Source: a virus (lineage: Duplodnaviria; Heunggongvirae; Uroviricota; Caudoviricetes). Taken from it: a stretch of DNA of 64,000 nucleotides. Below the pieces are notes generated by a model. It did not search any database and was not told the DNA's origin. It was given only the letters and a program-made list of their open reading frames with translations. Position numbers and translations under genes: made by a program. Positions 27,395-44,799 of this stretch are shown here, piece after piece (within the stretch, counting starts at the first letter, position 1; each line of letters opens with the position of its first letter). Location of the stretch: IMG/VR virus record IMGVR_UViG_2713896899_000007, positions 1 through 64,000 of that record; one strand, written 5' to 3'.

Positions 27395-28056
27395 GAATGG
27401 ACCTCATCGTGACTACCATTGTGATATTCCACCTTCACGCGTTCTTTGTAGTGCTTGGTGATCTGCATATCCGGGCGCAGCGCGTTCTTCAGGTCTTCGT
27501 GAGTCGTCGCCACCATTACCGTCGCACCAACCTTTCGAGCGGCACGCTGGAGGTTAGACGCCACAACCTGAGCGGTTACACGGTCGAGAACAGCGCCGAA
27601 CTCGTCAGCAGCCCACACTTTAGCGTCTGACTCAATCAGTTTGGCAATCTTGAGACGATATTTCTGGCCGTCTGACATTTCAGAAGGCTTGCGAACAAAC
27701 AGATATGCATCGTTCAGACCAGCCATAGATAACAACCCAAGCGCATCACTGGTCGTTTTGCCCAACTGATCGATGACGTTAACCTCATTATCGAAGGTAA
27801 AATCATCGATGGAGGCTACAGACAGCCCTTCATCCTTCATCTGTCGTTGCAACTCGCGCAGCACAACGGATTTGCCGGAACCGGATTGGCCGGTGATGTA
27901 CACCACATCGCCCTGCTTCACTTCCAGCTCCAGATTGTCGTAAAGCGTCCACTCTTTTTCGTCCAGGCCAAGCCCGAACGACTCAGCGATTTCCAATGTG
28001 CGCGTGGTTTTATTTACGCGTGTCTGAAACGATACGTTGATGATGTATTTGCTCAT
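27391..28056 (-). CDS. soluble ABC-type ATPase
   Basis: Walker A GQSGSGKS, signature LSDGQKYRL-like, Walker B AADEFGAVLD, H-loop; no membrane domain. Confidence 0.7.
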   Translation of the reverse strand: MSKYIINVSFQTRVNKTTRTLEIAESFGLGLDEKEWTLYDNLELEVKQGDVVYITGQSGSGKSVVLRELQRQMKDEGLSVASIDDFTFDNEVNVIDQLGKTTSDALGLLSMAGLNDAYLFVRKPSEMSDGQKYRLKIAKLIESDAKVWAADEFGAVLDRVTAQVVASNLQRAARKVGATVMVATTHEDLKNALRPDMQITKHYKERVKVEYHNGSHDEVHS

Positions 28057-28721
28057 GCAGCCATCTCCCCGGAAGAGATCTTCTCCGCATATGCCACAAA
28101 TGCGTCTACCCCGCTTTCTCCCGTCATTTCTTCCATGTGGGCAAGCAAATCACCAACAACAATGGCAGAGCCAGCAGGGAGCGTTTTAAAGCCCAATACG
28201 TCGACAACACGTACTTCTTCCGCTGCAACTTCACGACTGATCTCGGTGTGTTCATCCTTCTGTCGTTTAGTTTCTTCGCCAAGATCGATAACTAGCGAGT
28301 CGGTGTCCATTTCTTCTGTCATACTGCCAACGAGAACATTCAACTCACGCTCTTCAAAGCCGAAAACCTCGATATCGTCCAGAACAAGCGACTCAAGCTC
28401 TTTCTGTAGCTTAATTGCATCGTAATCAATGCTGGCAAGTCGGTTATCTTCAAGGCGCTTCGCACGAACCTCGTCATCACTGAGATCATCGCGAACAATA
28501 ACCGGTACGCGCTCAAGTCCAGCAAAAATTGCAGCCTCACGGCGGCCGTGGCCAGTAATAATTACGTCGTTCTTATCGACCGTAATTGGCTGGTCAAATC
28601 CGCGCTTTTTAATGGCTGCGGCTAGATCTCGGATCTGCTGTTCATCATGCTTTTTGGCATTCATCTCATAGGGAATAAGATCTGCCGGGTCGCGATATAC
28701 GATTTCAAACTTTTTGGTCAT
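28053..28721 (-). CDS. ParB/Srx-fold (ParB-like nuclease domain) protein
   Basis: ITGHGRREAAIFAGLERVPVIV motif; start moved to MTKKFEIVY, which has an AAGGAG RBS. Confidence 0.7.
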   Translation of the reverse strand: MTKKFEIVYRDPADLIPYEMNAKKHDEQQIRDLAAAIKKRGFDQPITVDKNDVIITGHGRREAAIFAGLERVPVIVRDDLSDDEVRAKRLEDNRLASIDYDAIKLQKELESLVLDDIEVFGFEERELNVLVGSMTEEMDTDSLVIDLGEETKRQKDEHTEISREVAAEEVRVVDVLGFKTLPAGSAIVVGDLLAHMEEMTGESGVDAFVAYAEKISSGEMAA

Positions 28722-29401
28722 TACATACGCTCCTTGTAGTAGTCGACCAGCCACACCAGAGCCTCACCAGCGTTCTCCATTTCATTACCGGTGTTAATAG
28801 CCTGCTCTTTGATGATGTTTTTTATGGTTTCTGCAACACGATCTGACGCATCGAAAGTTACTTTGAAGCGCATGGTCTGATGTTCCGCACCCACACGTTC
28901 GGTTTTCTCCCGTTTGTCGGTATCGACAGGCTCATCACTACCACGAGACAACGCCTCCAGTGCTTCAAGGTCGATTGCCGCCTCTTTTGCTAAAACCATC
29001 GAGATTTCGTCGTCATACGGGGCGATTTCAGACAGTTGATAGTCAAGTTCTGACTGAATTTCTTCAATGAAGCGTTGCAATGCGATTTGGTCGTCTTCAC
29101 CGTATCGCTCGTTGTCCACCAGTGACATCTGTTTTGCCACGACATCGCTAATTTTGCCCACAGAAAGCACCGGAACCGTTGAAATTCCTTGCTCAATAGC
29201 AGCACGCCAGCGATGTTCGCCGCCGAGGATTTCAAAAAATCCATCTTCAAGTTCACGAGCCAAAATTGGCTTAAAAAAGCCCAATTTTTCGATAGAACCT
29301 TTCAGTTTTTCAAAATTCTGCGCACCAACCGAATTGGTGTTCCAGGTATTCGGGCGAAGGTTGGCAACATCAACCTGCAAAATCGTGATTTTTACATCCA
29401 T
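28721..29401 (-). CDS. ParB/Srx-fold (ParB-like nuclease domain) protein
   Basis: GGEHRWRAAIEQGISTVPVLSV motif; track start is GTG, moved to next ATG (MDVKITIL). Confidence 0.7.
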   Translation of the reverse strand: MDVKITILQVDVANLRPNTWNTNSVGAQNFEKLKGSIEKLGFFKPILARELEDGFFEILGGEHRWRAAIEQGISTVPVLSVGKISDVVAKQMSLVDNERYGEDDQIALQRFIEEIQSELDYQLSEIAPYDDEISMVLAKEAAIDLEALEALSRGSDEPVDTDKREKTERVGAEHQTMRFKVTFDASDRVAETIKNIIKEQAINTGNEMENAGEALVWLVDYYKERM

Positions 29402-29483
29402 TTTATTGCTACAATCCACTAAGTAACTGCTTACTTATTATAATAGCCAAATAACATACAAAAGGCACTAAGGAAAGAGGTTT

Positions 29484-31045: not shown

Positions 31046-31324
31046 ATGAGCGAAAAGAAAACAACTTATTGCCAAGTGGCATTGTCTGATAAGGCCAATG
31101 AAAAACTTGGAAAATTTCAAATAAAACTCAAAGAGAAAAAAATCAAGATGTCTAAGGCTGAAGTTATCAATGCCATTCTGGAGACGATGACTATGGCTGA
31201 ATTTGACAAAGTCACATCTGCCGTTGGGGTTTCCGCTAAGACGCGTGAGAAAATCATGCGCATCTATGAAAACTCCAATATGACAAAAAAAGATCTAGAG
31301 GAAATACTGAGCAGGTTGCCGTAA
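31046..31324 (+). CDS. hypothetical small protein
   Basis: 92-aa ORF coupled to helicase stop. Confidence 0.4.
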   Translation: MSEKKTTYCQVALSDKANEKLGKFQIKLKEKKIKMSKAEVINAILETMTMAEFDKVTSAVGVSAKTREKIMRIYENSNMTKKDLEEILSRLP

Positions 31325-31389
31325 CATTTCATATTTACCCCCTATCAACTAATTCTATGATGTGCTCACTTGTTAGAAAGGAGCACATC

Positions 31390-31956
31390 ATGAGTTGGTT
31401 AAAAGAATTATCATTTGTTGACACCACTGGCGCTAAGAAAAATCATTCTTTCTGGAAAGTCAGCGATCCTTCTGATTTTCTTGTTGGTGCTAATGCTGCT
31501 TTTGAATTGCTTAACTTTTATCAACGTTATCCTGAAATGAAACACAGTCCACTCCTGTACAGAATAACAAACGATATGAATAGGTCTGGTTTATTATCAA
31601 GTGAGTCAGCGAAAGGCTTTTTTAGCAAAATTACGCCACACATATCATTCGATGCAGCAAACGAAATTGATTGTCTATCCACGAAACCTCAAGAACAATT
31701 ATCTGTACCACCTGAGAAAAAACAAAGACGAATTGCCAGCATTGAAAATATATCGAAAGAGCTTCGCACAACAACGTTGAGGCTGCTGAACTTTCTTACG
31801 CTACTTAATTGGATAGATGATCAAACATTGATTCCATCAACCGATGCGTTGGATAACAGAGTACTTAGGCTGAACAAAAAATCGCAATTTGGTTTTGTGT
31901 TCACCAAAAAAGGTGAAGATTTAATCAAAAGAAAATATAGATTATTGAATGATTAA
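31390..31956 (+). CDS. hypothetical protein
   Basis: start moved to MSWLKEL, which has an AAAGGAG RBS. Confidence 0.4.
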   Translation: MSWLKELSFVDTTGAKKNHSFWKVSDPSDFLVGANAAFELLNFYQRYPEMKHSPLLYRITNDMNRSGLLSSESAKGFFSKITPHISFDAANEIDCLSTKPQEQLSVPPEKKQRRIASIENISKELRTTTLRLLNFLTLLNWIDDQTLIPSTDALDNRVLRLNKKSQFGFVFTKKGEDLIKRKYRLLND

Positions 31957-32101
31957 TAGTCTACATGCAGGTGTATGAGAGCACCTGCATGTGATATTCA
32001 TCACATTTTTTGAAGTACACACCTCCGGCTGAAAAAATTTCTTGATTGGCAGAACGATATTTGTAGGCTTTTCAATTGATAACTAAGGTCGGATACTGTA
32101 G

Positions 32102-32590
32102 ATGAGTATTTCCATAAACAAAATAATTAACTCTTTACGACATAAAATATCACATGGAAAAGATGTTCTTTTTAAAGACAAATATTATCTATTCAACCTA
32201 GAGTTGTACAAATGCACAAAATTTTATATCACTCGGAACCGTAAATATTCAGCTTCAATCACAAAAGACATGAAGAAAATCTCTTCAGAAGAGTACTTCA
32301 TATCACATATTTATATCTACCCATTTAAATTAGAACCATTAAATATAATTCTTCCAACAATAAAAGGGGTTGAACTTGAAGGTTATACTTTAAGCTCTAA
32401 CTTTAATGATATGGGTGTACAAAAACCAGGGACAAGGTCATACTACGCCTACAAAGTAAAATGCAATAACTACAACGCACTTAACATGCTAATCAGCAAA
32501 CTTGAAACGGAGATAGTCGAAGGAAATCTAAATGATGATCATGAAAAATTAGAACAAATAGAAAAACTTAGAAAGTGTGATGTTAAATAA
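32102..32590 (+). CDS. hypothetical protein (very AT-rich gene)
   Basis: 162-aa ORF, Lys/Asn/Ile/Tyr-rich. Confidence 0.4.
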   Translation: MSISINKIINSLRHKISHGKDVLFKDKYYLFNLELYKCTKFYITRNRKYSASITKDMKKISSEEYFISHIYIYPFKLEPLNIILPTIKGVELEGYTLSSNFNDMGVQKPGTRSYYAYKVKCNNYNALNMLISKLETEIVEGNLNDDHEKLEQIEKLRKCDVK

Positions 32591-33205
32591 TTGGATTATC
32601 ATGATATGAAAATGAAAATTTCGTTACTCCTTGCTTGTATATGCCTCCCGGCGTTTTCCGCCAACGCATTATCAGATTTCGTCTCTGACATGCAAAAAAC
32701 GTACAGCATGTTTACCTCCGAAGACGTAGTAGAATACAAATCACGAGGTCTGAATCAGCCAGTTTGGTTCAGATTCTCAGACAACGCAGAAGAAACAATA
32801 CTTAATGGAGGAAAAGAAAGATTACGGTTGCAAATTAACGGGACCGCTGTACCAGAAAACGTTAATGTAAACTCTGACGAAGCCATGAAGCCATCTGGAA
32901 TTGTTTTAGAAGTTCAAGACGGCACACTTTACTGTGATGAAATGGCTACAACAGGTTGCCAAGTAAACATTAGGGTTGGCAATGAAGAGCCTATCGTTAC
33001 TTACGCCAAGGCTGAAGGGAATACAAGTGGAAAGGTATTGTTTATCGATGAAAATATCTCAAAACGTATCGTTCGTGACATACAGAAAACAGCTAACTCT
33101 AAATCCGTCGATAAAAAAATCTATGTTGAGGTTCCCTTCTTTGTCGTTGGTAACAAAGAATTTAAATTTGGGTTGCTGAAAACACCTCTAAGAGTATCAG
33201 AATGA
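32591..33205 (+). CDS. exported protein with N-terminal signal peptide
   Basis: MKMKISLLLACICLPAFSANA signal-like N-terminus; coupled to neighbours. Confidence 0.45.
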   Translation: MDYHDMKMKISLLLACICLPAFSANALSDFVSDMQKTYSMFTSEDVVEYKSRGLNQPVWFRFSDNAEETILNGGKERLRLQINGTAVPENVNVNSDEAMKPSGIVLEVQDGTLYCDEMATTGCQVNIRVGNEEPIVTYAKAEGNTSGKVLFIDENISKRIVRDIQKTANSKSVDKKIYVEVPFFVVGNKEFKFGLLKTPLRVSE

Positions 33206-33726
33206 GAACATTGGACATCACCTACGGCATACCGGCTGAAGTCTGGCCGCGAGACTACGAACATGCTGAAAACATACTTATGTTCTGGCGGAAGAACAAC
33301 ATTCCTGTAAGAGTCACGCTTGAAGACGGTCAGGTGTTTTGCATGTACGTTCAGGGGACAATGCCTTCCCGCAATAAGCTAGATTTATGCCCGCTTCCAT
33401 ATGATAAAGAAAATCGTATAAGACTCCCACTTGAGCGCATTAGCACAATTGAATCAGGTGTAATCGATGGCATTGCTCGCGAGTTCAAAGGTAGGCTAAC
33501 AATACATCCAGACTATGTTGACAATCAGCCATCACGCCGTGACTTTTTTGCGATATGTCGCAAGGCTTATCAAAACGACCAATCTATAAGGGTCTACATG
33601 GCAGACGGTCGTGAAATTGAAGGGGTGTCAAGAGGCGTTGATGCTTGCCAGGTCACTCTTAAGTTAGAAGACGGCAGAAAAATACTTGTTTTCTTCGATT
33701 GGGTTGAACGAATCCTTCCATTTTAA
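33202..33726 (+). CDS. hypothetical protein (two beta-rich repeat halves)
   Basis: 174-aa ORF overlapping upstream stop. Confidence 0.4.
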   Translation: MRTLDITYGIPAEVWPRDYEHAENILMFWRKNNIPVRVTLEDGQVFCMYVQGTMPSRNKLDLCPLPYDKENRIRLPLERISTIESGVIDGIAREFKGRLTIHPDYVDNQPSRRDFFAICRKAYQNDQSIRVYMADGREIEGVSRGVDACQVTLKLEDGRKILVFFDWVERILPF

Positions 33727-33739
33727 ATCTATAAGGGTA

Positions 33740-33768
33740 ATAACCGGCTAAGCCCGGTTATTATTTTA
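33740..33768 (+). terminator. rho-independent terminator-like hairpin
   Basis: AACCGG-CTAAG-CCCGGTT stem-loop followed by T-rich run. Confidence 0.5.
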
Positions 33769-34012
33769 CATGCCATTCATTTAAAACTCTTTCAATGCCA
33801 CTCTGTATAAATATATAAGGTTAAAGGCCCGAATTGATTATTTATTTAGGGAACACCTTCGACGATCTCGCTTTTATTTCTAGGACTTTCACCCCTGCAA
33901 AAAATTTAAAAAAAACACTTGCAATCTTTTTTCACGTATCGATAATTGAACTCGTCGAAAGCGAGCTGGCTAACGACAGTAAAAAATAAATTCATTTTAA
34001 TTTTTCGTAAGG

Positions 34013-34672
34013 ATGTCCATCATGGCTAACATTATCATTTCTAAAAAATCCATCATTGAAGCTGCTTCCATTGTATCCGATGAACTGCGCGAAAAAGCAG
34101 ATCTGGCAACTCAAACATATAACGAACATTATAAAAATGGTACGCACACTAAAGCAGACAAAGCAAATATGCAAGCTGCGACCACTAAACTTGCTTACTT
34201 CATCAACAACGTCGTAAACGCAGTAGAAGACGAAAAATTATGCTCTGTTTTCTACTATGCGATTAAAGCAAGCAAACAAGCGCCAGAAGTATTTTTCCGT
34301 GATGCTATGACTAATAGTTATTCACTGGAAAAACTGGTTTATCTGGTTAAATCCATTAAAGCTGGTAAATGCGTTTATTCCGTCGCTGATATGTCAGGAT
34401 CTCGTGTATTCGCTTTAATCGATATGATTAACGACGAGATCGACACGTTCACCAATGGCGCTGTTTTCGATTTAATGAATGAAGCTAAAAAAGCGTGCGA
34501 AATTAAATTGGACGCTGGCTATACTCAAGCCAACCAGTTGATCAATCTTTGCGAACGTCTCGGACTTGTTGAAAAAGTCAAAGGAGCTGGGAGCGCCAAA
34601 GCTGGTACGCAGCAATATCGCTTCATTAAAAATGATTTCTACAATTATTTAGCTGATGCTTTTAAAGCGTAA
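34013..34672 (+). CDS. hypothetical protein
   Basis: 219-aa ORF with TTGCAA-16-GATAAT promoter-like sequence upstream. Confidence 0.45.
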   Translation: MSIMANIIISKKSIIEAASIVSDELREKADLATQTYNEHYKNGTHTKADKANMQAATTKLAYFINNVVNAVEDEKLCSVFYYAIKASKQAPEVFFRDAMTNSYSLEKLVYLVKSIKAGKCVYSVADMSGSRVFALIDMINDEIDTFTNGAVFDLMNEAKKACEIKLDAGYTQANQLINLCERLGLVEKVKGAGSAKAGTQQYRFIKNDFYNYLADAFKA

Positions 34673-34683
34673 TTAATGAAATC

Positions 34684-34705
34684 AAGCGCCCACTATGGGC
34701 GCTTT
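34684..34705 (+). terminator. hairpin GCGCCCA-CTA-TGGGCGC (copy 1)
   Basis: perfect 7-bp stem, 3-nt loop, after the 219-aa gene. Confidence 0.5.
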
Positions 34706-34721
34706 AAAGGAGCTTTCAAAA

Positions 34722-34925
34722 ATGGTCAGCTATGACAAGATCCGCGCGGAATATCGCGCAAAGTATCGCGCTTATAAACTGGAATTAATCGACGATTTGA
34801 TCGCGCAACGCGACCAATTAAATTTTACGTTTTCTGATTTGCTTAACAGTAAACGAGATTGTAAGCGTAAGCGTGAATATTTACGTTTAAGCGCATTAAT
34901 CGGAAAACTTCAAAATTCTATTTAA
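34722..34925 (+). CDS. hypothetical small protein
   Basis: start moved to MVSYDKIR, which has an AAAGGAG RBS. Confidence 0.35.
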   Translation: MVSYDKIRAEYRAKYRAYKLELIDDLIAQRDQLNFTFSDLLNSKRDCKRKREYLRLSALIGKLQNSI

Positions 34926-34945
34926 TTTTTTTAAGGAGCTTAATC

Positions 34946-35173
34946 ATGGTTATTTTCATCTCTGGCGTAAATATCAATAATCATACTCTTGTTTATGATA
35001 TTGCTGGTTTAGCTGGATATGCTCTAAGTTCTGAAGTGGTTGATGAAACAACGTTTAAAATAAACATCAATGACGTAGAACATAGAGCGCGCGTAGGAAT
35101 CAATGAAGCTGATGTTACTTTAATGCTTCAAGAATTTTTAAACGCTGGCTTTAATATTCACTTAGAAAAATAA
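34946..35173 (+). CDS. hypothetical small protein
   Basis: 75-aa ORF with AAGGAG RBS. Confidence 0.4.
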   Translation: MVIFISGVNINNHTLVYDIAGLAGYALSSEVVDETTFKININDVEHRARVGINEADVTLMLQEFLNAGFNIHLEK

Positions 35174-35180
35174 AAACAAT

Positions 35181-35320
35181 AGCGCCCACTATGGGCGCTT
35201 TTTTCGTTTACAATACACCCACCATAACGCGCCAATAATGGCGCTTTTTTATTGTCTTTAACTCACTCCAACAACATAAAAATAAGCGCCAAAATAACGC
35301 CATAGACGCGCTTTTATATC
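35181..35320 (+). terminator. stack of three to four terminator-like hairpins
   Basis: GCGCCCACTATGGGCGC+T6, GCGCCAATAATGGCGC+T6, further GC hairpin with T-run. Confidence 0.55.
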
Positions 35321-35399: not shown

Positions 35400-35785
35400 T
35401 TAATTTTTATTCTTGCTATGTGATCCGCGTTTAATTGTCGGCGCGGATCGGCATTTTGTTTTGTTCCGTATCCGCTCGCGTATTATGTGCGCGTGATTTT
35501 TCACATAATCACACCACTTAATCACGTATGTGATTATGCTACGAAAGAAATCTGGATGTCTCAGGCGACGAAAGTCATCATAATTTTCCCCGCTCACCTG
35601 TCCGACAACCGCTGGTTGGATTCCACCAGCTTCCCGATGTTTTTTCTACATAAAGGCGAATGCAGCCGTTTCCCGAAAAAATCCTGGCCGTTTCCCGTCG
35701 GCTCATGAATGCGTTCCTTGCCGTTTCTGAAAATTTCCCTGCGGCAGCTGGTGGCTATAGAGAAAGGGCCGTTTCTGGCCCTCTT
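35400..35785. promoter_or_regulatory. candidate origin/partition region: palindromes, DnaA-box-like 9-mers and iteron-like direct repeats (cluster 1)
   Basis: GATCCGCG...CGCGGATC palindrome; TGTGATTAT-like boxes; four or five GCCGTTTC(C/T) repeats spaced ~22-35 bp. Confidence 0.4.
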
Positions 35786-35790
35786 CTCAG

Positions 35791-36273
35791 TTACACGCCA
35801 TCAAGGATGTGGATGCGGTTGCTTGCGTATACATTCAGCATAAAGTTAGCGCAAAACAGTTTCCATGTATCAACGCCAGCGGTATACGTAATGTTTTTGC
35901 ATTTAATTGCATTGTTGGCGATCTGCGTAGCCAGTGATATGGCTTCATGGTCAGTAAAGCCGTATGACGTTTGGGTCTTCATCCAGACAGAAATCTGCGT
36001 AGCGAACTCAATCAGCTTGGACTGGCAGAATCGCCCGGAGCGCACCGGAAAGACGAACGTTCCGAATCCAGAATTTACCACATACGCTTTCTCAAATACC
36101 CGAGAGTAACGACGATTGCCAATGATGTCGCGTGCAATAATGCATTTTTCTTGTTCTGACAGTTCTACCGTCTCATTGTGACGCCAGGCACCAAGTACTC
36201 GTTTTTCAATGTCAGAGAACGTTACAGCGATATTGCCATGTGCGGGTGCGTTTACAGTAGCGATAAAATTCAT
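35791..36273 (-). CDS. hypothetical protein
   Basis: 160-aa ORF with AAGGAA RBS and motif B upstream. Confidence 0.45.
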   Translation of the reverse strand: MNFIATVNAPAHGNIAVTFSDIEKRVLGAWRHNETVELSEQEKCIIARDIIGNRRYSRVFEKAYVVNSGFGTFVFPVRSGRFCQSKLIEFATQISVWMKTQTSYGFTDHEAISLATQIANNAIKCKNITYTAGVDTWKLFCANFMLNVYASNRIHILDGV

Positions 36274-36478
36274 GATTAATTCCTTATCGTAAATAACAAA
36301 TTGTTTTCTTGTTGGCGTTAATTATCGTTGTACGAATAAGGCGTCAAAGTGGAAAGTTGCGGTAGCCGGACGGGAACAGGTGGGTTTGTCGGTTGCCTGG
36401 AGGTAAGAGGTTGGTGTTTTTAGCCTGCGGGGAACAGGATGGTCATTTAAGGCCACCAGCGTTAACTGGTGGCGTTTG

Positions 36479-37177
36479 TCATGCTGGAATCATATCTAAT
36501 TGAAAAGATTCCATTATATATGTTGGTTCATCGATGTAGTCCTTCAGCCTATTGTCAAATGACTCAAGCGGATTGTATGGCGGATGATGCCGCTCCGAGT
36601 ATTCATTTAAAAGATGCCCCATTATCAGTTCGATACCCATCTCTACTCCTGAAACTCCGAACCATACATTGTGCGTTAGTTGCTGGGCGTCTGTATCCAG
36701 TACGCGAACGCCATCAACAAGATTTATTAGATTCCTGTGGTTTTCGTGTACTGTAACCTCTCCGCTGGTTAAGTCTATTTCAGCGAGAAAATATGGTCTT
36801 TTGCTTCCGTCGGACTTTTTGAAATGACCGTCATAAGCGATAGCAAACCACGCTTTACTAAAGTCCTTGTTGGCGTAAGTGGTGCACATACAACTAGGAT
36901 AATCATCAATGTTAAACCAATCAGGAAACGGATCATCTTTAGACGAGCCAGCAAAATCATCAGCTAGTTCGTAGCTAATGTCTGGGTTGTACTTGCTGAC
37001 AAAATCATCTACATCCTCTACATCCTCAACACCTTTCCAAACTTTACATCTCTCCGACCAAAAGAATCTCGCAATATCCGAAATGACTGGGAAACGTTTT
37101 TCAATTGAATTTATCAACTCTGCATGTTCTTTAAGAGATTTACGCTTGTTGATAAGCTTCTGAAGATGCGTACTCAT
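36479..37177 (-). CDS. hypothetical acidic protein
   Basis: 232-aa ORF with motif B upstream. Confidence 0.45.
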   Translation of the reverse strand: MSTHLQKLINKRKSLKEHAELINSIEKRFPVISDIARFFWSERCKVWKGVEDVEDVDDFVSKYNPDISYELADDFAGSSKDDPFPDWFNIDDYPSCMCTTYANKDFSKAWFAIAYDGHFKKSDGSKRPYFLAEIDLTSGEVTVHENHRNLINLVDGVRVLDTDAQQLTHNVWFGVSGVEMGIELIMGHLLNEYSERHHPPYNPLESFDNRLKDYIDEPTYIMESFQLDMIPA

Positions 37178-37291
37178 TTTTAATTCCTCGTTTGTTTTTG
37201 ATGTGATAATTATCGCAGTCAGATTAAGGCAGAAAACAAATTGTTATCGGGCATAAGAAAATGGCGCGGTTTACGCGCCATTTAAAGAGGA

Positions 37292-37687
37292 TTAAGCGAA
37301 TACGCTTTCAGGGATTAAGGTGTCAGCAGGAATGCCGGAGGTAATACGCAGACCGTACTGACCAATCCAGGTGGTGCTGGTGTTCAGGCTGGAGGTGAAT
37401 ACGGAATTAACCATATTCATCATGGTTTCAAACACCTCTTCATCAACCTGGCGGAAGTAGTTCTCGATTTTCAGCAGCAGCGGGTCAGTTGCATCGAGAA
37501 TGGACTGGTATTGCGTCGCGTACTCGCCGCCGGAGGCATCACCTTTACGCACGATCGTACTGGCCTGTACTTCGGCACCAGTTTCGGTGTTGTACGTAAC
37601 AACGGTGATTTTTGCCACATTCTTACCTTCGGCGGTTTCAGAGGCATAGTAAACATCAACTGTCAGTTTTTCGCGTTTAACGGTCAT
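37292..37687 (-). CDS. hypothetical protein
   Basis: 131-aa ORF with motif A upstream. Confidence 0.45.
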   Translation of the reverse strand: MTVKREKLTVDVYYASETAEGKNVAKITVVTYNTETGAEVQASTIVRKGDASGGEYATQYQSILDATDPLLLKIENYFRQVDEEVFETMMNMVNSVFTSSLNTSTTWIGQYGLRITSGIPADTLIPESVFA

Positions 37688-37813
37688 TTCACTCTCCGTA
37701 GTGTCTTGGTTATTTTTCTATTTTATAGCCGTAAGTATGTACTTACAATACAAAAAAGCCCCGTAAGGATGGCGGGGCTGTCGTACTGTCGACTAATTAC
37801 CACTTGCACATTA

Positions 37814-38155
37814 TCAGGCTATTGCCATCACTGATGCTCTCTGAATTTCTTGTTGGGCCACGCGGTTAACTTCCATCAAAGCCAGTTCGAGCTGATGTTC
37901 CGGCCACATTCTTTGAAATGCCACCCAGCCTTTTCCACGCTGGCGACGAACATTCATTACATAACGAGTAAAGGTGTTTTTATCGAAAGACACCGCTGTT
38001 TCACGGAACAGACGAATAGAGGTTCCATTGGCAACGATGTCCAGCAAAGTTAATTGAGCAACTAGCGCAGGCTTCTCTTTTCGCTTCTGGTCTTTGTCCA
38101 GACCAAGAACCAATGATTTTTTCATCACAACTCCGTAAACAACTTGTTTTCTCAA
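37814..38155 (-). CDS. hypothetical protein (start possibly internal at MKKSLV)
   Basis: ORF with motif B at its 5' end. Confidence 0.4.
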   Translation of the reverse strand: MRKQVVYGVVMKKSLVLGLDKDQKRKEKPALVAQLTLLDIVANGTSIRLFRETAVSFDKNTFTRYVMNVRRQRGKGWVAFQRMWPEHQLELALMEVNRVAQQEIQRASVMAIA

Positions 38156-38278
38156 TGGCGTAAATAATACCAGTAAGAAAACGGCTACAAAGCATAATGA
38201 TCAGGTGCATGATCGATATGCAGGTTCCTCCCTGCGGCTATAGAGAAATTAAGCCAGCATTGCTGGCTTTGGTTGAGG

Positions 38279-38608
38279 TTACGCGAATACTTCAAGAAAC
38301 TCCTGAACGTCCCAATGCTGGACAAGGTGAAGATAGACCTTAGAAATCACGTCATTCTCGCTATCGCATGTGAAGTAGTACTTCTGGCTGCGGTTGTATG
38401 TGTCCACACAAAATTCGCTCATATCCATAAAGTCAGCATCTTCTCCCATGTCGCAAATCATCAAAGCAGGTGCGTCATCACGAGTCATCAGCTCAAGCAC
38501 CCACCGCGAATTGATCAGAGTGGAAGACCAACCTTCCAGCTCACAGAACTGGTCAAACTCTTTTTGAGTCAATTTCTTAATTTGGTTGATGTCGATATGT
38601 GCAAACAT
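38279..38608 (-). CDS. hypothetical protein
   Basis: start moved to second Met (TAAGGAT RBS); the track ATG lies inside the conserved motif B leader. Confidence 0.4.
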   Translation of the reverse strand: MFAHIDINQIKKLTQKEFDQFCELEGWSSTLINSRWVLELMTRDDAPALMICDMGEDADFMDMSEFCVDTYNRSQKYYFTCDSENDVISKVYLHLVQHWDVQEFLEVFA

Positions 38609-38959
38609 AAAGCAATCCTTAAACAACATGTTTTCTTATTGGTGTTATTATCGCAATAACGCACAGGCGAAAAAGGATTTTATTCCGGTGAATGTGGTTT
38701 TGGCAGTGAGTTTTCAGGTTCAGTACCGAGTACACTTTTTACATTATTCTGATTTAGTGGCCGAAGATGGCTGGTGGGCAGAATAATCCTCTCCCCGAAA
38801 ACCTACTGAAATCGATTGTGACCCGCTGGCTGTCTGGCACAATTACGCTGTAGCTGGGCATTCAGAGGGAATCCAGCGGTAAGTTCGCCTGCACGTGAGC
38901 GCCTCTCTTCTTACCGCACATTACAGGTGGGTAGCCGCAACTCTCCCTCACGCTATACC

Positions 38960-39105
38960 GGTACGCCACCGTTCCTGAACCGGCATCGAGCCTTTTCCCG
39001 AAATCCACACAGGCAACTCTACCGTTTCCCTGAAAATCCCCAGCCGTTCCCCGAAGGCAACCCAGCCGTTTCTGTAGCGGGATGCAGCCTTTCCCTGTAT
39101 GGACC
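38960..39105. repeat. iteron-like direct repeats (cluster 2), about six copies at ~22-bp spacing
   Basis: CCGTTTCCCTGAAAATCCCCAG / CCGTTCCCCGAAGGCAACCCAG / CCGTTTCTGTAGCGGGATGCAG and flanking variants. Confidence 0.55.
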
Positions 39106-40176
39106 GAAGGCTGACCGTAGGGGTGTTACGGGGGATAAAATCAGGAGTTGAATAAATACGAAAAAGGAGGCGACACCCCTACTTCCCTCTCCACTTATAC
39201 ATACCAGGCTTCTTCGCTATACATGTTGTGTTTTCTTCGTGTTTTATCTGTCTCAACCTCTCTATAGGCGTTAATGCTCACTCCTACCAGAACGTTCTAT
39301 ACGGCGACTATTTCTGTTGGTGGATTAGGTGTGTTGTTTTCTCTGTCGGTGTATGTGGTTTCGTTCGTTTTGCGGTGGTTCTTCTATGGGGTGTTCTCGT
39401 CGTTTTGGTGATTGTTCTTCTCCGTATATGGAGTAATGGCAGGTGGGCGATTGCTTTCGTTATTGTGTTTGAGTTGTTTGTCTGGAGTGTGTGAAAGGCT
39501 TTTGTAGTTATTCGTGTATTGGGTAATGGCGTTTCCCGTGATTGTTATGTTTCGTGTCTTTTGGGATTGAGAGAAACCTTGCGGTTACAGGCTTCGTTGG
39601 GGTTTCAGTGATTCTGGTGTTTCTTCGCTGTTTGGGGAATGGCGTGTCGTGGGTATCGCGCGTGTGAATGTTTTCGGATTGCCTGTGAAAGTTAGGTTGG
39701 TTATCCGGTAGCCTGGGAAGAAGAGGTGGGTCTTTTCGGTAGCCTGCCATAAAGAGGTTGGTTGTTTTTGGGAATGGCATGTGTGTTATTTAGTTGTTTT
39801 GTTATGCCTGAAAATAAGTTGTTTATATGGTTGTGTAACGCAACGGGAGCGATTTTGAGCGTGTGTTTTTGTTGGTAGTGTGTTGAGTCGTCTGTGGTGA
39901 AAATTGGACGCTGTGGAGCTGTCTGCTGCGTAGGATTACGGGTATAAGAAGTGATGTGTGAAAACGTCAATTTTTTAGACCAAATCGGGAGAAAGCGTTG
40001 ATGTTTCGTTGATCTGTTATTTAGTTGTTTTCTTATTGGTATAAACAACTGTAACCTATTGATATTTAAGGATGTGATTGCAGGCATGGAAGGGGAGTAG
40101 TGGCGATCAACGGATTCTTATAGAAAAGAATCAAATTGTGACCGCCATTATCAACGGTTTGAATATGTTTGCAGAT

Positions 40177-40476
40177 TTACCAGTTCCAGCACTCAAGCCC
40201 TTCAACGACCGGCGCACCACAATCAAAATGTACAGAGTCAAAGCCTACATCAAGTACTTTCTGAATGTTAGCAATCGCGCCTTCGGATATACCATATCGA
40301 CGCAAGTCGTCTTTCCAGACATCATCCTGTAACCCGGCGTGGACAATACAACCGCCATCAATTTGTGAAACCCAATCCAGCTCATTGCTTGCGATCATGA
40401 ATCGGCGAGCATCTTCCTCTGATGTATGAGATGAACTGATCAATGCCACCTGGTAGGCTTGGGTAATGTTCAACAT
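40177..40476 (-). CDS. hypothetical protein
   Basis: track start is GTG; moved to next ATG, which has a GGAG RBS; motif B upstream. Confidence 0.35.
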   Translation of the reverse strand: MLNITQAYQVALISSSHTSEEDARRFMIASNELDWVSQIDGGCIVHAGLQDDVWKDDLRRYGISEGAIANIQKVLDVGFDSVHFDCGAPVVEGLECWNW

Positions 40477-40539
40477 TTCAACCACTCCAAAACAAGTTGT
40501 TTTCTTATGTGGCTTATTATCTCTAACAACAAAAGGCAG

Positions 40540-40690
40540 AAAACAAATTGTTTTAGGTACTGTGTAAATCAGAAGGGATTGTGTCTATATGAAAATGCCC
40601 GGCGTGTTGCCGGGCATTGCGAAGAGAGGTTGTTTAATTACTTAACCTGGTGGCCAGGTTTAGCACCGGCATCCGGCTGCAGGATGGGAG
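40540..40690. repeat. direct repeat copy 1: diverged duplicate of metG 3' end (last ~12 codons plus stop), terminator hairpin and motif B; att-like
   Basis: about 85 percent identical to 41398-41550 over ~150 bp. Confidence 0.6.
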
Positions 40691-41367
40691 GTTACGTTCG
40701 CGCTATGTTGATATTCTGATTGACGCCATTTGTGCCAAATCATCTCCTTATAGGATTCATATTGCGTTCGGTACTCTGGCTTCAAGTCAGATATGCCTTT
40801 ATTCACTACCGCTCGTACGTTTACTAATAATTCGTGCTCAATGCCTTTACTCTCTAAATATTCTACAACACCAGCATCGGGGCCAATTGCCCTGCCGTTA
40901 AAGACCATTTCCAGCATAAGCTCTGTTTCAGCAAAATAGATAGGTGAGGAACCAGGTGCACACAGCTTAATAGCAGTAAGATTGTCCAACAGGTCGGCCA
41001 ATTTAATCATTCGCGTCTGCATATCCAACGTCTTTTGCAATTCGCGAACATTAATAATGAATCTCGCAAGACTATCGCCGTCGTCTGGTTTGGCAACGTT
41101 TGCCAGCGCCAGTACCATCTCAGCTACACGATTCCCGAAATACTCGCGTACCATTTCGATAGTGATATGGGTATCTTCAATAACACCATGTAATAATGCA
41201 GCAGCCTGCATTTCGACAGTGCCTCCGTGCCAAGCAACAATCTCACGCACAGAAACTGGGTGTGTAACGTAGTCTTCCCCCGTATATCTACGCTTCTTAC
41301 CTACACCACCATACACTCCAACGGCAAACATATGAGCTTTATCAACAATCGACATAATTTGCTCCAT
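40660..41367 (-). CDS. SpoT/Rel-type HD-domain hydrolase paralogue, HG variant of the HD motif, chimeric C-terminus
   Basis: HPVSVREIV...ALLHGVIEDT...MIKLADLLDN; 3' end reads into the metG-derived repeat in another frame. Confidence 0.55.
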   Translation of the reverse strand: MEQIMSIVDKAHMFAVGVYGGVGKKRRYTGEDYVTHPVSVREIVAWHGGTVEMQAAALLHGVIEDTHITIEMVREYFGNRVAEMVLALANVAKPDDGDSLARFIINVRELQKTLDMQTRMIKLADLLDNLTAIKLCAPGSSPIYFAETELMLEMVFNGRAIGPDAGVVEYLESKGIEHELLVNVRAVVNKGISDLKPEYRTQYESYKEMIWHKWRQSEYQHSANVTSHPAAGCRC

Positions 41368-41397
41368 TATTTTGTTAATACTGTTACTCTAACTGAT

Positions 41398-41550
41398 AAT
41401 AGAACGCAGAAAACAAATTGTTTTAGGGGCTGAGTAAATCAGAAGGGATTGCGTCTATATGAAAATGCCCAGCAATACGCTGGGCATTGTGAAGAATGGT
41501 TGTTTAGTTACTTAACTTGGTGGCCTGGTTTAGCACCAGCATCCGGGCTT
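41398..41550. repeat. direct repeat copy 2, overlapping the true 3' end of metG
   Basis: homologous to 40540-40690. Confidence 0.6.
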
Positions 41551-43541
41551 AACAGGAAGATATCTTTCCCGCCGGGGCCAGCAGCCATCACCATGCCTTC
41601 GGAGATACCGAAGCGCATTTTACGCGGAGCCAGGTTAGCCACCATAATTGTGTGACGACCAATCAGTGCCTGTGGGTCTGGATAAGCAGAACGGATGCCT
41701 GAGAAGACATTACGCTTTTCACCACCGAGATCCAGTGTCAGGCGCAACAGTTTGTCAGAACCTTCAACAAACTCCGCGTTTTCAATCAGCGCCACACGCA
41801 GGTCAACTTTGGCGAAGTCGTCAAAGGTGATGGTTTCCTGAATCGGGTCGTCAGCCAGTGGGCCAGTAACTGGCGCGGCAGTAGCTTTCACTTCTTCTTT
41901 GGATGCTTCCACCAGTGCTTCCACCTGTTTCATATCGATACGGTTATACAGTGCCTTGAACGGATTCACTTTATGGCCCAGCAGCGGTTGCTGGATACCA
42001 TCCCAGGTCAGTTCTGTATTCAGGAATGCTTCTGCACGTTCAGTCAGTTTCGGCAGTACCGGTTTCAGATACGTCATCAGCACGCGGAACAGGTTAATGC
42101 CCATAGAGCAAATCGCCTGCAGATCTGCATCGCGACCTTCCTGCTTCGCCACCACCCACGGAGCCTGTTCATCGACATAGCGGTTAGCCAGGTCAGCCAA
42201 TGCCATGATTTCACGGATAGCTTTACCAAATTCGCGGCTTTCCCATGCTTCGCCAATCACTTCAGCGGCATCAGTAAAGGTTTTGTACAGTTGCGGGTCA
42301 GCCAGTTCGCTTGCCAGCACGCCGTCAAAACGCTTGTTGATAAAGCCTGCATTACGGGAGGCCAGGTTAACCACTTTGTTAACAATATCGGCATTCACTC
42401 GCTGAACGAAATCCTCCAGGTTGAGATCGATATCATCAATGCGCGAAGAGAGTTTCGCAGTGTAGTAGTAACGCAGGCTGTCAGCGTCAAAATGATTCAG
42501 CCAGGTGCTGGCTTTAATAAAGGTGCCGCGAGACTTGGACATCTTCGCACCGTTCACCGTCACATAGCCATGAACAAACAGGTTGGTCGGCTTGCGGAAG
42601 TTGCTGCCTTCCAGCATGGCAGGCCAGAACAGACTGTGGAAGTAAACGATATCTTTACCGATGAAGTGGTACAGCTCGGCGGTGGAGTCTTTCTTCCAGT
42701 ATTCATCGAAGCTGGTGGTATCGCCGCGCTTGTCGCACAGATTCTTGAAGGAACCCATGTAGCCAATCGGTGCGTCCAGCCAGACGTAGAAATATTTACC
42801 CGGCGCGTTCGGAATTTCAAAACCGAAGTAAGGTGCGTCGCGGGAGATATCCCACTGTTGCAGACCAGATTCAAACCACTCCTGCATTTTGTTTGCCACC
42901 TGCTCCTGCAACGCACCGCTGCGGGTCCATGCCTGCAACATTTCGCTGAAAGAGGGCAGATCAAAGAAGAAGTGTTCAGAATCACGCATTACCGGGGTAG
43001 CACCAGAAACCACCGATTTCGGCTCGATCAGTTCAGTCGGGCTGTAGGTCGCGCCACAAACTTCACAGTTATCGCCGTATTGATCTGGCGCTTTACATTT
43101 CGGGCAGGTGCCTTTCACAAAACGATCCGGCAGGAACATGCCTTTTTCCGGGTCGTACAACTGAGAGATAGTGCGGTTTTTAATAAAACCGTTCTCTTTC
43201 AGGCGAGTATAAATAAGCTCAGACAGCTGGCGGTTCTCTTCGCTGTGCGTCGAGTGATAGTTGTCATAGCTGATGTTAAAGCCTGCGAAATCAGTCTGGT
43301 GTTCCTGACTCATTTCGCCAATCATCTGCTCCGGTGTGATACCAAGTTGCTGTGCTTTCAGCATGATCGGCGTACCGTGGGCATCGTCGGCACAGATGAA
43401 ATTAACCTCGTGGCCGCGCATTCGCTGGTAACGAACCCAGACATCAGCCTGGATGTGCTCCAGCATATGGCCGAGGTGGATTGAGCCGTTAGCGTACGGC
43501 AGCGCGCACGTCACCAGAATTTTCTTCGCGACTTGGGTCAT
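41508..43541 (-). CDS. metG: methionyl-tRNA synthetase (host gene)
   Basis: 677-aa product with HIGH-type motif ([11 protein letters not shown]) and KMSKS; near-identical to enterobacterial MetG from MTQVAKK; the longer track ORF is an upstream in-frame extension. Confidence 0.95.
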
Positions 43542-43698
43542 AGTAGGCATTACTTCTTTGTAGTGAAAAGGGGCTTGATAGTAACAAAATGGCCTTATGT
43601 CTGCCATGTGATAACAGCATTTCTCATAAATGATTAAATGTCGTAGCTGGAGTACACTACAAGGCGACAATTGCGCAAATTAAAATAAAGGAGACGGG

Positions 43699-44799
43699 AT
43701 GAGCGAGTCCAAATCGCCGGATGCCCTGAGAGCAATGGTAGCCGGTACGCTGGCTAATTTTCAGCACCCAACCCTGAAACACAACCTGACTACGCTTAAA
43801 GCGTTACACCATGTTGCGTTGATGGATGACACACTGCATGTCGAACTAATCATGCCTTTCGTGTGGAATAAGCCTTTTGAAGACCTGAAAGAGCAATGTA
43901 GTGGTGATCTGCTCCGTATCACTGGCGCAAAGGCTATTGACTGGAAGCTGTCGTACAACATTGCCACGCTTAAGCGCGTCAAAAACCAACCAGGCATTAA
44001 TGGTGTTAAGAATATTATCGCCGTAAGCTCAGGCAAGGGCGGTGTAGGCAAATCGTCCACAGCAGTAAACTTGGCACTGGCGTTGGCTGCTGAAGGTGCG
44101 AAAGTTGGTATTTTGGATGCCGATATCTACGGGCCATCAATACCAACCATGCTGGGCGCGGAAAACCAACGTCCAACCTCACCGGACGGTACTCACATGG
44201 CACCTATCATGTCTCATGGCCTGGCAACCAATTCAATTGGCTATCTGGTCACCGACGACAATGCAATGGTGTGGCGTGGACCGATGGCCAGCAAGGCGCT
44301 GATGCAGATGTTGCAGGAAACACTGTGGCCTGATCTGGACTATCTCGTTCTCGATATGCCGCCGGGCACTGGTGATATTCAGTTGACGCTGGCGCAGAAC
44401 ATTCCTGTAACTGGTGCGGTTGTGGTAACTACGCCGCAAGACATCGCGCTGATCGATGCGAAGAAAGGCATTGTGATGTTCGAAAAAGTCGAAGTGCCAG
44501 TACTGGGTATCGTTGAAAACATGAGTGTGCATATTTGCAGTAACTGCGGTCATCACGAGCCAATTTTTGGCACCGGTGGCGCACAGAAACTGGCCGAGAA
44601 ATACAACACGCAGTTGTTAGGCCAAATGCCACTTCATATCTCTCTTCGTGAAGATCTGGATAACGGAACACCAACCGTTATTAGTCGTCCAGATAGTGAA
44701 TTTACGGCTATTTATCGTGACCTCGCAGATCGCGTTGCTGCCCAAATGTATTGGCAAGGTGAAGTAATACCTGGCGAAATCGCATTCCGCGCAGTGTGA
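43699..44799 (+). CDS. apbC: Fe-S cluster carrier ATPase ApbC/Mrp (host gene)
   Basis: deviant Walker A SGKGGVGKS and CxxC motif; divergent from metG as in E. coli. Confidence 0.95.
   Translation: MSESKSPDALRAMVAGTLANFQHPTLKHNLTTLKALHHVALMDDTLHVELIMPFVWNKPFEDLKEQCSGDLLRITGAKAIDWKLSYNIATLKRVKNQPGINGVKNIIAVSSGKGGVGKSSTAVNLALALAAEGAKVGILDADIYGPSIPTMLGAENQRPTSPDGTHMAPIMSHGLATNSIGYLVTDDNAMVWRGPMASKALMQMLQETLWPDLDYLVLDMPPGTGDIQLTLAQNIPVTGAVVVTTPQDIALIDAKKGIVMFEKVEVPVLGIVENMSVHICSNCGHHEPIFGTGGAQKLAEKYNTQLLGQMPLHISLREDLDNGTPTVISRPDSEFTAIYRDLADRVAAQMYWQGEVIPGEIAFRAV

Follow-up and report, generated by a model that had tools for sequence, protein, structure and literature searches.

Why should a phage genome keep almost a kilobase of DNA that seems to encode no protein and in which one strand consists largely of G and T? 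The question is raised by positions 39200-40070 of a 64,000-nucleotide stretch of a Caudoviricetes virus (IMG/VR virus record IMGVR_UViG_2713896899_000007, positions 1 to 64,000), hereafter the window, whose coordinates are used throughout unless another record is named. The window turned out to be part of an SSU5/pHCM2-type phage-plasmid, with the E. coli plasmid p009_B as its best match (99.8% identity). Since the matching records are plasmids or phage-plasmids, an integrated prophage was rejected. Elements of this type are common in E. coli, Klebsiella, Salmonella and Enterobacter and can bear resistance genes; dfrA51 is one such gene in the window. Taken together, the facts presented below probably reflect a conserved, non-coding, cis-acting DNA platform of the phage (lytic) mode, about 1.3 kb in size (38960-40165). 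More specifically, we consider the region a candidate lytic replication-origin zone, a tentative assignment to which we give a probability of roughly 0.3.

A strand asymmetry confined to one non-coding region

How unusual is the composition of this stretch? It contains 346 T, 256 G, 151 A and 118 C (G+T 0.691). Across the window, the 800-bp segment richest in G+T starts at 39301, with a value of 0.709 against a mean of 0.498 and a standard deviation (SD) of 0.029. The extreme strand skew reported in a first-pass annotation of this DNA is therefore real, lying about 7 SD above the window mean in this sliding-window check. Within the skewed stretch, 200-bp windows show GC skews of +0.44 to +0.54 and AT skews of -0.36 to -0.62. 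In the reconstructed 110-kb element, where 300-bp windows have a mean G+T of 0.501 (SD 0.038), a value of 0.62 is clearly exceeded only at window 39176-40151, where the maximum is 0.763; one other single window barely reaches that level. The region has a G+C content of 44%, and the C residues of its G/T-rich strand lie mostly within T-rich tracts (TTC, TCT, CTC). The conserved non-coding unit is wider than the segment first noted, extending from about 38960 to 40165. It is the largest non-coding region of the element, whose minus strand, as seen in p009_B, carries nearly all genes.

We next asked whether the region might nevertheless contain a gene. For this comparison, 47 distinct homologues were collected between two conserved anchors. 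Of 46 homologues, only 2 have an intact open reading frame (ORF) at 39228-39494 (+), only 11 at 39508-39780 (-) and only 8 at 39701-40087 (-); frameshifts or stops appear even among relatives that are 96-97% identical. None of the three has a Pfam match, and neither Fourier analysis nor autocorrelation detected a 3-base periodicity in the region (period-3 z about 0). They are thus artefacts of base composition, as had been proposed. Existing annotations point the same way. The p009_B annotation by the Prokaryotic Genome Annotation Pipeline calls no gene in the region, RefSeq leaves a gap of about 1.4-1.6 kb here in E. coli, Enterobacter, Citrobacter, Buttiauxella and Klebsiella plasmids, and a depositor-annotated K. 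oxytoca record has the same gene gap. In phage records, the hypothetical genes drawn in the region differ in strand from record to record.

Conservation of the region and of its skew

How widespread is the region? A query of 951 bases around the skewed stretch matched Escherichia phages PhiR41_1 and Cyrano at 96-98% and Salmonella phage SSU5 at 70%. It also matched 835 PLSDB plasmid records, almost all of them non-mobilizable, from Klebsiella, Escherichia, Enterobacter, Salmonella, Citrobacter and Cronobacter hosts. Among 80 viral-contig loci fetched via a nearby 160-amino-acid gene (35791-36273; PHROG 1641), the skewed stretch was found in 67; of the remaining 13, six are truncated and seven lack all or part of the region. 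A conserved 26-mer of the region also matched two further contigs, one labelled 'Bacillota bacterium MAG' and a Catenulispora one of 604 bp. Hundreds of bases of each can be aligned with the enterobacterial phage-plasmid region; the two are probably assembly contamination.

Over 650 aligned columns of the skewed stretch, the window and SSU5 are 0.68 identical. In two flanking genes, four-fold sites are 0.34-0.47 identical and codon positions 1-2 are 0.68-0.81 identical (a third flanking gene pair was out of register and was disregarded). The non-coding stretch is thus conserved like positions that determine amino acids, and because its identity to SSU5 exceeds that of the four-fold sites next to it, we conclude from these alignments that it is under purifying selection. 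The distance between the anchors is 906-1035 bp in 46 of the 47 homologues, the exception being Kluyvera pSCW13-2, which is interrupted by an insertion sequence (IS). Those 46 have a G+T of 0.63-0.67 over the whole region, and in all 47 the richest 500-bp window shows 0.67-0.75. Conservation is patchy, with peaks at 39291-39350, around each type B repeat core (see below), at 39840-39860 and, above all, at 39960-40040. Comparison with related elements, which the first-pass annotation had named as a check, thus reveals a region that is conserved and has no gene in any homologue.

Is the skew itself maintained? One distant lineage is represented by the K. pneumoniae plasmid pRHBSTW-00636_4, which has a different replicon type and the same synteny, with a gene-free gap of 1.5 kb. 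Its flanking 160-amino-acid gene shares 33% protein identity with that of the window. Within the gap, iteron-like CCGTTCCCC repeats, a CTTGAATTTCTACG loop and operator palindromes are recognisable, followed by about 900 bp with G+T of 0.61-0.73. The composition of this stretch (A.16, C.16, G.30, T.38) is indistinguishable from that of the window, and the gap contains three copies of TGGG(T/A)GATGGC. The core, on the other hand, is 0.62 identical to that of the window, compared with 0.60 +/- 0.009 for shuffles. The skew thus persists in a lineage in which the core can hardly be aligned, and it therefore appears to be selected in its own right. An extreme G+T/A+C asymmetry that is kept beyond alignable sequence is unusual, and would point to a role for which one strand has to stay single and unfoldable. 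Among the low-frequency variants of the E. coli clade there are 37 keto-to-amino and 23 amino-to-keto changes, so that most run against the skew. This direction counts weakly, given the small difference, against present-day mutation pressure as the cause of the skew. As a test of selection on G/T identity, counts of substitution classes are confounded by composition.

Repeats and other sequence elements

The features of the region and of related sites in the window are listed in Table 1.

Table 1. Sequence features of the skewed region, of module 1 and of dispersed operator-like sites (window coordinates)
Feature	Position	Strand	Description
Module 1 type A iterons	35655..35790	+	GCCGTTTCCC at 35665 and 35687, plus degenerate copies
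Module 1 type C array	36355..36445	+	three 31-bp units, upstream of the promoter of the 160-amino-acid gene
Type A iterons	38960..39102	+	six direct repeats, core GCCGTTTCCC and variants
Highly conserved block	39105..39202		inverted repeat around A/T-rich ~45 bp; ends in invariant CTTATAC
Variable spacer	39203..39290		E. coli-lineage-specific insertion; gapped, unconserved alignment columns
Keto-skewed core	39291..39700	+	G+T-rich; type B repeats of ~28 nt, consensus GTTCTTCTCCGTGTATGGRGTAATGGCR
Type C array	39690..39767	+	~2.5 tandem 31-bp units, GGTAGCCTG-N7-AGAGGTKGGT
Operator-like palindrome	39808..39826		GAAAATAAGTTGTTTA in the window, GAAAACAACTTGTTTA in SSU5; AGAAAACAAnTTGTTT family
Conserved G/T-rich segment	39827..39959	+	near-invariant TAACGCAACGGGAGCG and GGGTATAAGA
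Best-conserved block	39960..40040		0.93-0.97 majority identity; GAAAACGTCAAnTTTTTAGACCAAATC, CGTTGAT twice, then TTGTTTTCTTATTGG
Right boundary block	40097..40160	-	GGCGATCAACGG ... GACCGCCA ... ATCAACGG; nested hairpin
AGAAAACAAnTTGTTT sites, examples	36288, 37224, 38131, 38616, 40490, 40537		palindrome scan
AGAAAACAAnTTGTTT sites, further examples	41407, 45345, 50430, 53342, 54056, 54785		palindrome scan

At the left end of the region, sequence reading and motif scans place the type A repeats at starts near 38969, 38991, 39021, 39043, 39065 and 39088, with a spacing of 22-30 bp. They are conserved in the homologue alignment, including the SSU5 and Klebsiella lineages, and the array has the direct repeats at approximately helical spacing (about 19-22 bp) that are expected of an iteron-type origin. 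The arms of the inverted repeat in the adjoining block read GTAGGGGTGT / ACACCCCTAC in the window and GGGGGAT / ATCCCCC in most lineages, and their consensus pairing shows a few compensatory changes. Between them, the A/T-rich stretch (39133-39172) contains CTTGAATAAATACG and is conserved. Three classes of direct repeats in the same orientation, beside an A/T-rich block flanked by inverted repeats, make up an origin-like setting.

The type B repeats belong to the skewed part. Their cores lie at 39433, 39523 and 39636, with a fourth at 39771, to the right of the C array and outside the core segment; GTAATGGC occurs at the first two positions and GGAATGGC at the last two, all on the + strand. 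The motif G[GT]AATGGC is present in 4 copies against 0.019 expected, a number reached in none of 20,000 shuffles. The GG(G/T)AATGGC(G/A)-type units recognized in the first pass are therefore genuine and far above chance. A consensus derived from 37 sites in 8 lineages indicates 3-6 copies per element, always in one orientation. Read on the minus strand, the motif is GCCAUYAC(C/U)C, in three to six copies, and is not known to match any protein-binding site. A sequence said to occur twice does so as well (CGGTAGCCTG at 39706 and 39737). The proposed periodicity of about 100 bp, in contrast, did not hold: the spacings are 90, 113 and 135 bp, and neither Fourier analysis nor autocorrelation gave a signal near 100 bp. 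Tandem Repeats Finder returned 0 rows at a minimum score of 30, and the only tandem units in the region are the 31-bp C units, in about 2.5 copies.

Several elements lie further to the right. GGGTATAAGA is an inverted copy (39941) of the CTTATAC at 39194. An invertible segment between the two was considered and rejected, the orientation being the same in 47 of 47 homologues. TTGTTTTCTTATTGG in the best-conserved block is a copy of the early-leader/operator motif without the GATAAT -10 hexamer usual at real promoters. The hairpin of the right boundary block immediately follows the upstream DUF5983 gene, whose stop codon is at 40177, has no U-tract, and is conserved even where that gene differs; judged by its sequence, it may be a terminator or a boundary element. 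One match to the IHF consensus lies at 40149. Overall, scans for DnaA boxes, IHF sites, GATC and G-runs found nothing origin-specific in the region, and no canonical quadruplexes are predicted, as the G3 runs are too widely separated. Chi sites number 15 in the 64 kb and are absent from the core; resemblances to them and to FtsK orienting polar sequences (KOPS), boxA, a type I-E CRISPR repeat and 16S rRNA were dropped as chance.

The A and C arrays also occur together at a second place. The module within the region (module 2, 38960-39102 plus 39690-39767) encloses the skewed stretch, and module 1 lies 3.3 kb to its left, its A and C arrays bracketing the 160-amino-acid gene. The distance from A to C is about 620-700 bp in both modules and in three lineages, and the layout is kept in SSU5 and Klebsiella. 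Within the 110 kb, A and C arrays are found nowhere else, and none of the three other large intergenic gaps examined has an iteron array; the region is the only iteron-rich one besides the smaller module 1 and the plasmid origin. Together, modules 1 and 2 bracket five operator-controlled genes. The operators in question belong to the AGAAAACAAnTTGTTT palindrome, which has 21 sites in the 110-kb element; minus-strand gene promoters are their typical location. The palindrome usually overlaps or sits just downstream of a GATAAT -10 hexamer and is often paired around the promoter. The element's main or global regulator probably uses it as a dispersed operator. The C1 operators of phage P1 are similarly dispersed.

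Relation to the plasmid mode of life

Could the region simply belong to the plasmid replicon? The replicon lies outside the window, at 110058-1632 of the p009_B record, and has a P1-like organisation, with repA accompanied by 4 upstream and 11 downstream iterons (core GTATGCTGTCAGCGGT). The initiator gene repA (RepB family) is about 33 kb from the skewed region. The type A repeats (GCCGTTTCCC) are unrelated to the RepA iterons, and none is found near repA. A role as part of the RepA (IncFIB/P1-like) origin or as an incA array was rejected on the basis of the different iteron sequence and the distance of 33 kb. Thus, the same element does possess an IncFIB/P1-type oriR with an incA-like array, but the iterons and the location of the region differ from it.

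Natural variants suggest, moreover, that the plasmid mode does without the region. Plasmid pMT1 of Y. pestis A1122 (NC_017169.1 6698-21174) has kept module 1 (A iterons, 160-amino-acid gene and C array), and contains neither the type B motif nor the skewed stretch. Its gene order implies a loss of about 28 kb, including module 2, next to IS1541. At the position of IS1541, SSU5-type elements have nrdAB, thyA, dfrA, primase, RNase HI, the skewed region and module 2. In Kluyvera cryocrescens pSCW13-2 (NZ_MN178640.1), an IS3-family element sits in the middle of the region, and the anchors are 2216 bp apart instead of about 1000. Because pMT1 does without the region, pSCW13-2 carries an IS inside it and other natural losses exist, the region is, on this comparative evidence, dispensable for plasmid replication and inheritance. 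It may also serve as a practical marker, since its absence from pMT1 and other relatives may identify derivatives without phage functions.

One block that pMT1 retains encodes two ParB_N proteins, an ATPase and a DEAD helicase. In the window, the two adjacent ParB_N-domain proteins and the ABC-type ATPase, likewise kept in pMT1, are encoded at 27391-29419, near the terminase genes. No canonical ParA/ParB pair was found in the annotated p009_B portions examined (record positions 1-37500 and 62000-110182).

RNA and transcription

A structured non-coding RNA was among the explanations offered for the stretch in the first pass. Searches of 36000-43000 on both strands yielded no Rfam match at E<=1. 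RNA of the + strand folds no better than shuffles (z=+0.48), and RNA of the - strand is almost structure-free, with a minimum free energy of -58 kcal/mol for 501 nt and almost no pairing in the core (z=-2.3). A fold with z=-4.06 is driven by the hairpin at 40097-40160. The consensus fold of the best-conserved block reaches only -10.8 kcal/mol for 236 nt, with negligible covariation, which indicates that it is the primary sequence that is conserved there, as one would expect of DNA bound by proteins. In the absence of an Rfam match, of a + strand fold below shuffles and of covariation, a structured RNA is not supported.

What would a transcript of the region look like? The - strand RNA of 39200-40070 has the composition A.40, C.29, U.17 and G.135, so that the expectation of a C/A-rich minus-strand transcript was correct. 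In 78-nt windows of this RNA the C/G ratio has a median of 2.55 and a maximum of 7.7, and there are 3 potential start codons in 650 nt. Neither a consensus scan nor a conservation-aware scan detected a conserved sigma-70 promoter inside the region on either strand, and the upstream gene is not predicted to end in an intrinsic terminator with a U-tract. RNA sequencing of Cyrano lysogens (PMC9928086, supplementary table) places CYRAN_103 (39692-40048) at the floor in 10 of 10 samples, with the adjacent CYRAN_102 being 10-80 times higher, at about 57 fragments per kilobase per million (FPKM). Going by these published lysogen counts, which may not be strand-specific, transcription in lysogens appears to stop at the right border of the region.

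By a wide margin, the top-expressed locus of the element in the same lysogen data (PMC9928086) is CYRAN_43 (OV696614.1 40268-40822, outside the window), at 723-fold above the local background. Annotated as a 'hypothetical protein', it is two genes from the repressor gene and adjoins the integrase gene; it might be an RNA gene or a moron.

A candidate site of the lytic mode

The element encodes its own replication and recombination set (DnaE, a DnaB-like helicase, primase, ligase, RNase HI, a 5'-3' exonuclease, RecA and an SbcCD-like pair) as well as nrdAB. Having these replication and recombination genes, it needs a lytic start site. The phage-plasmid literature searched names no lytic origin and gives no account of the switch from plasmid to lytic replication in SSU5-type elements, and neither a full-text literature search nor the phage-plasmid papers yielded a description of the skewed non-coding region. 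A region that is under selection and yet dispensable for plasmid life is the obvious place to seek a lytic origin or a master cis-control site.

How might such an origin work? A phage protein would bind the six type A iterons, spaced by 22 bp, and the adjacent A/T-rich stretch, clamped by the G5/C5 inverted repeats, would open. The neighbouring 650-750 bp would then provide a long track without hairpins or promoters, the two strands of which differ sharply. The G/T-rich + strand, running 5' to 3' away from the iterons, would have the polarity required for a DnaB-type helicase and a primase moving rightwards, and primers made on it would be extended leftwards, co-directionally with nearly all genes. 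Proteins would also bind at the type B repeats, of which there are 3-6, and at the 31-bp C array, and module 1 (A plus C, 3.3 kb away) would partner the region much as crr partners ori in phage P4. In lysogens, the region would be kept closed by the operator-like palindromes. The first-pass suggestion of a recombination- or replication-associated repeat region is the one towards which the evidence leans, given the iterons, the repeat arrays, the dispensability for the plasmid and the lysogen RNA floor. Its repeat part stands as observed, and the replication role, like every step above, the binding proteins and the reason for the skew, is what we infer.

Known origins offer several parallels. 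As in the region, P4 ori plus crr and lambda ori have clusters of direct repeats, spaced by about two helical turns, beside an A/T-rich stretch. P4 has, in addition, a second repeat cluster in the same orientation a few kilobases away (crr is about 4.5 kb from ori), which resembles module 1. In the region, too, nearby transcription is apparently repressor-controlled. P1, with its oriL and oriR, likewise has an origin that is separate from the plasmid-mode replicon. Unlike the P4 and lambda origins, the region has no initiator gene found nearby and no DnaA boxes; unlike known origins in general, it has a 650-750-bp keto-skewed track with its own repeat family. R-loop origins (ColE1 RNA II, T4 oriF/oriG, mitochondrial OH) share with it a non-coding length of several hundred bp and a strong G/C asymmetry, and the element does encode RNase HI and a 5'-3' exonuclease. 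In R-loop origins, however, the RNA corresponds to the G-rich strand, whereas the plausible leftward transcript of the region is C/A-rich. Since no + strand promoter was found, a G-rich R-loop would need a promoter that escaped detection.

A number of observations weigh against a lytic origin. Canonical DnaA boxes are missing from 38600-40250, which has only TTWTNCACA sites with one mismatch, and trinucleotide enrichment revealed no primase-type trinucleotide that stands out in the G/T-rich strand. The stretch between the G5/C5 inverted repeats is about 60-68% A+T, as estimated by eye, and a region of about 700 bp with 44% G+C fits no described unwinding element. Pfam, PHROG and PDB searches of the flanking genes were uninformative and gave no candidate for the initiator. 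GC skew at four-fold sites along the 110-kb element shows no step at the region, although this test is noisy. No origin is known to have such a long keto-skewed track, so that our rationale for the skew is a construction rather than a precedent. Finally, the A/C-rich sense strand fits explanations at the RNA level equally well.

A bolder proposal, which we regard as quite unlikely, is that the skew is the selected property and that the region works as a single-stranded nucleic acid in one of two forms. It could be a structure-free loading track for helicase and primase (or for a RecA-type recombinase), and hence a new kind of lytic origin. Or it could give rise to an unfoldable lytic RNA, all A and C, whose GCCAUYACCC motifs would capture Rho or another host RNA-binding factor. 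If true, either form would represent a functional class defined by base composition and a short repeat rather than by sequence or structure, and present in >800 sequenced Enterobacteriaceae plasmids. For now, we would class the region among the repeat-rich cis-control or origin regions of phages; what sets it apart is an extreme and apparently selected keto/amino asymmetry that is conserved beyond alignable sequence.

Alternative explanations

Could the region act through the RNA transcribed from it? It could be a Rho-loading zone, terminator or insulator in which leftward transcripts of the early operon become untranslated, C-rich, G-poor and unstructured. Transcription would then be halted before the iterons and the small genes beyond them, or the block would be lifted by lytic antitermination. 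A Rho utilization (rut) site needs roughly 80-100 nt of C-rich RNA. The - strand RNA, with C.29 against G.135 and a median C/G of 2.55, is C-rich over at least about 80 nt, has little structure (-58 kcal/mol per 501 nt) and can hardly be translated (3 start codons in 650 nt). The lack of a predicted U-tract terminator at the end of the upstream gene and the drop of the Cyrano lysogen signal from about 57 FPKM in CYRAN_102 to the floor within the region agree with this explanation too. The region thus shares with rut regions an untranslated, unstructured RNA with C>G downstream of an operon. At about 700 nt, however, it far exceeds what a rut site needs, being roughly ten times longer. Rho loading requires no set sequence, yet the region has invariant GTAATGGC cores, repeated motifs, a fixed length and a level of conservation like that of codon positions 1-2. 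A>U is as skewed as C>G, which is not a Rho requirement, and the B and C repeats resemble DNA-level arrays located upstream of a promoter in module 1. On balance, Rho loading is possible but unlikely. More doubtful still is an unstructured A/C-rich RNA of about 0.7-0.9 kb, made from the - strand during lytic growth, that acts by base-pairing or as a sponge, its 3-6 GCCAUYACCC-type motifs sequestering or recruiting a factor as CsrB or CrcZ do. Like the CsrB/RsmZ and CrcZ sponges, the region presents several copies of a short motif over a few hundred nt of accessible RNA. The motif stands in a single-stranded context and in one orientation in close and distant lineages alike, the skew appears selected and is of the kind that abolishes RNA pairing, and the region is downstream of operator-controlled early promoters on the - strand. 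Unlike those sponges, it has no conserved promoter of its own on either strand, no terminator that would define a discrete RNA, no structure presenting the motif in loops and no Rfam family. Expression was not detected in the lysogen data either, the single ORF measured inside the region (CYRAN_103) being at the floor, and the motif does not correspond to GGA, AAnAAnAA or any other known RNA-binding site. Neighbouring A and C repeats are also present ahead of a promoter, a position at which no transcript should arise, suggesting that they act at the DNA level.

A DNA platform without a role in replication is likewise conceivable, though we find it improbable, whichever of two forms it takes. 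In one, the two ParB_N proteins and the ABC-type ATPase, whose genes lie 10 kb away, would bind the region as a partition centromere; in the other, a looping or silencing complex would pair modules 1 and 2 and so control the small early genes that separate them. Type I and II centromeres typically contain direct-repeat arrays, the ParB_N/ATPase trio is conserved, also in pMT1, and the element portions examined have no ParA/ParB pair. The looping form gains from the fact that the two modules bracket five operator-controlled genes. Neither form, however, explains the strand skew. Centromeres normally adjoin their par genes, whereas the nearest ParB_N genes are 10 kb away. Plasmid pMT1, which is stably inherited, has neither module 2 nor the skewed stretch, and in pSCW13-2 the region is interrupted by an IS. 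There is, finally, the explanation that the region has no function at all: it would be what is left of a gene after decay, or would have arisen incidentally through strand-biased mutation, for instance by deamination of a strand that is often single-stranded. Deamination of an exposed strand (C to T and A to G) enriches it in G+T, as in vertebrate mitochondrial H strands and non-transcribed strands, and would raise G+T here as well. The conservation far above neutral sites, the fixed length and the conserved motif positions nevertheless make a functionless stretch highly improbable, and recent variants run against the skew. The decayed coding region envisaged in the first pass must be rejected, because no homologue has an intact gene and conservation is too high. 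Neither tblastn nor blastn detected similarity to the 160-amino-acid gene of module 1, and a decayed paralogue of that gene was rejected.

Other features of the element

To the right of the skewed region, the phage-plasmid carries a full-length methionyl-tRNA synthetase gene, metG (41508-43670, -), together with apbC (43699-44799, +), encoding an ApbC/Mrp protein; the pair occupies 41508-44799. It has about 90% DNA identity to the E. coli chromosomal pair and is present on 222 E. coli plasmid records, figures that point to an old or foreign capture of a housekeeping locus. Close by, a direct repeat of 180 nt with 81% identity (40497-40676 and 41367-41546) flanks an HD-domain gene (40660-41367). 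By eye, each copy contains the early promoter/operator motif and an apparent metG 3' end, which suggests insertion of cargo by recombination between promoter cassettes. To the left of module 1, a low-G+C island (33-39%) at 31200-35200 has its genes on the plus strand and is the sole sizeable rightward-transcribed block. It includes a homologue of the phase-1 flagellin repressor FljA (33202-33726).

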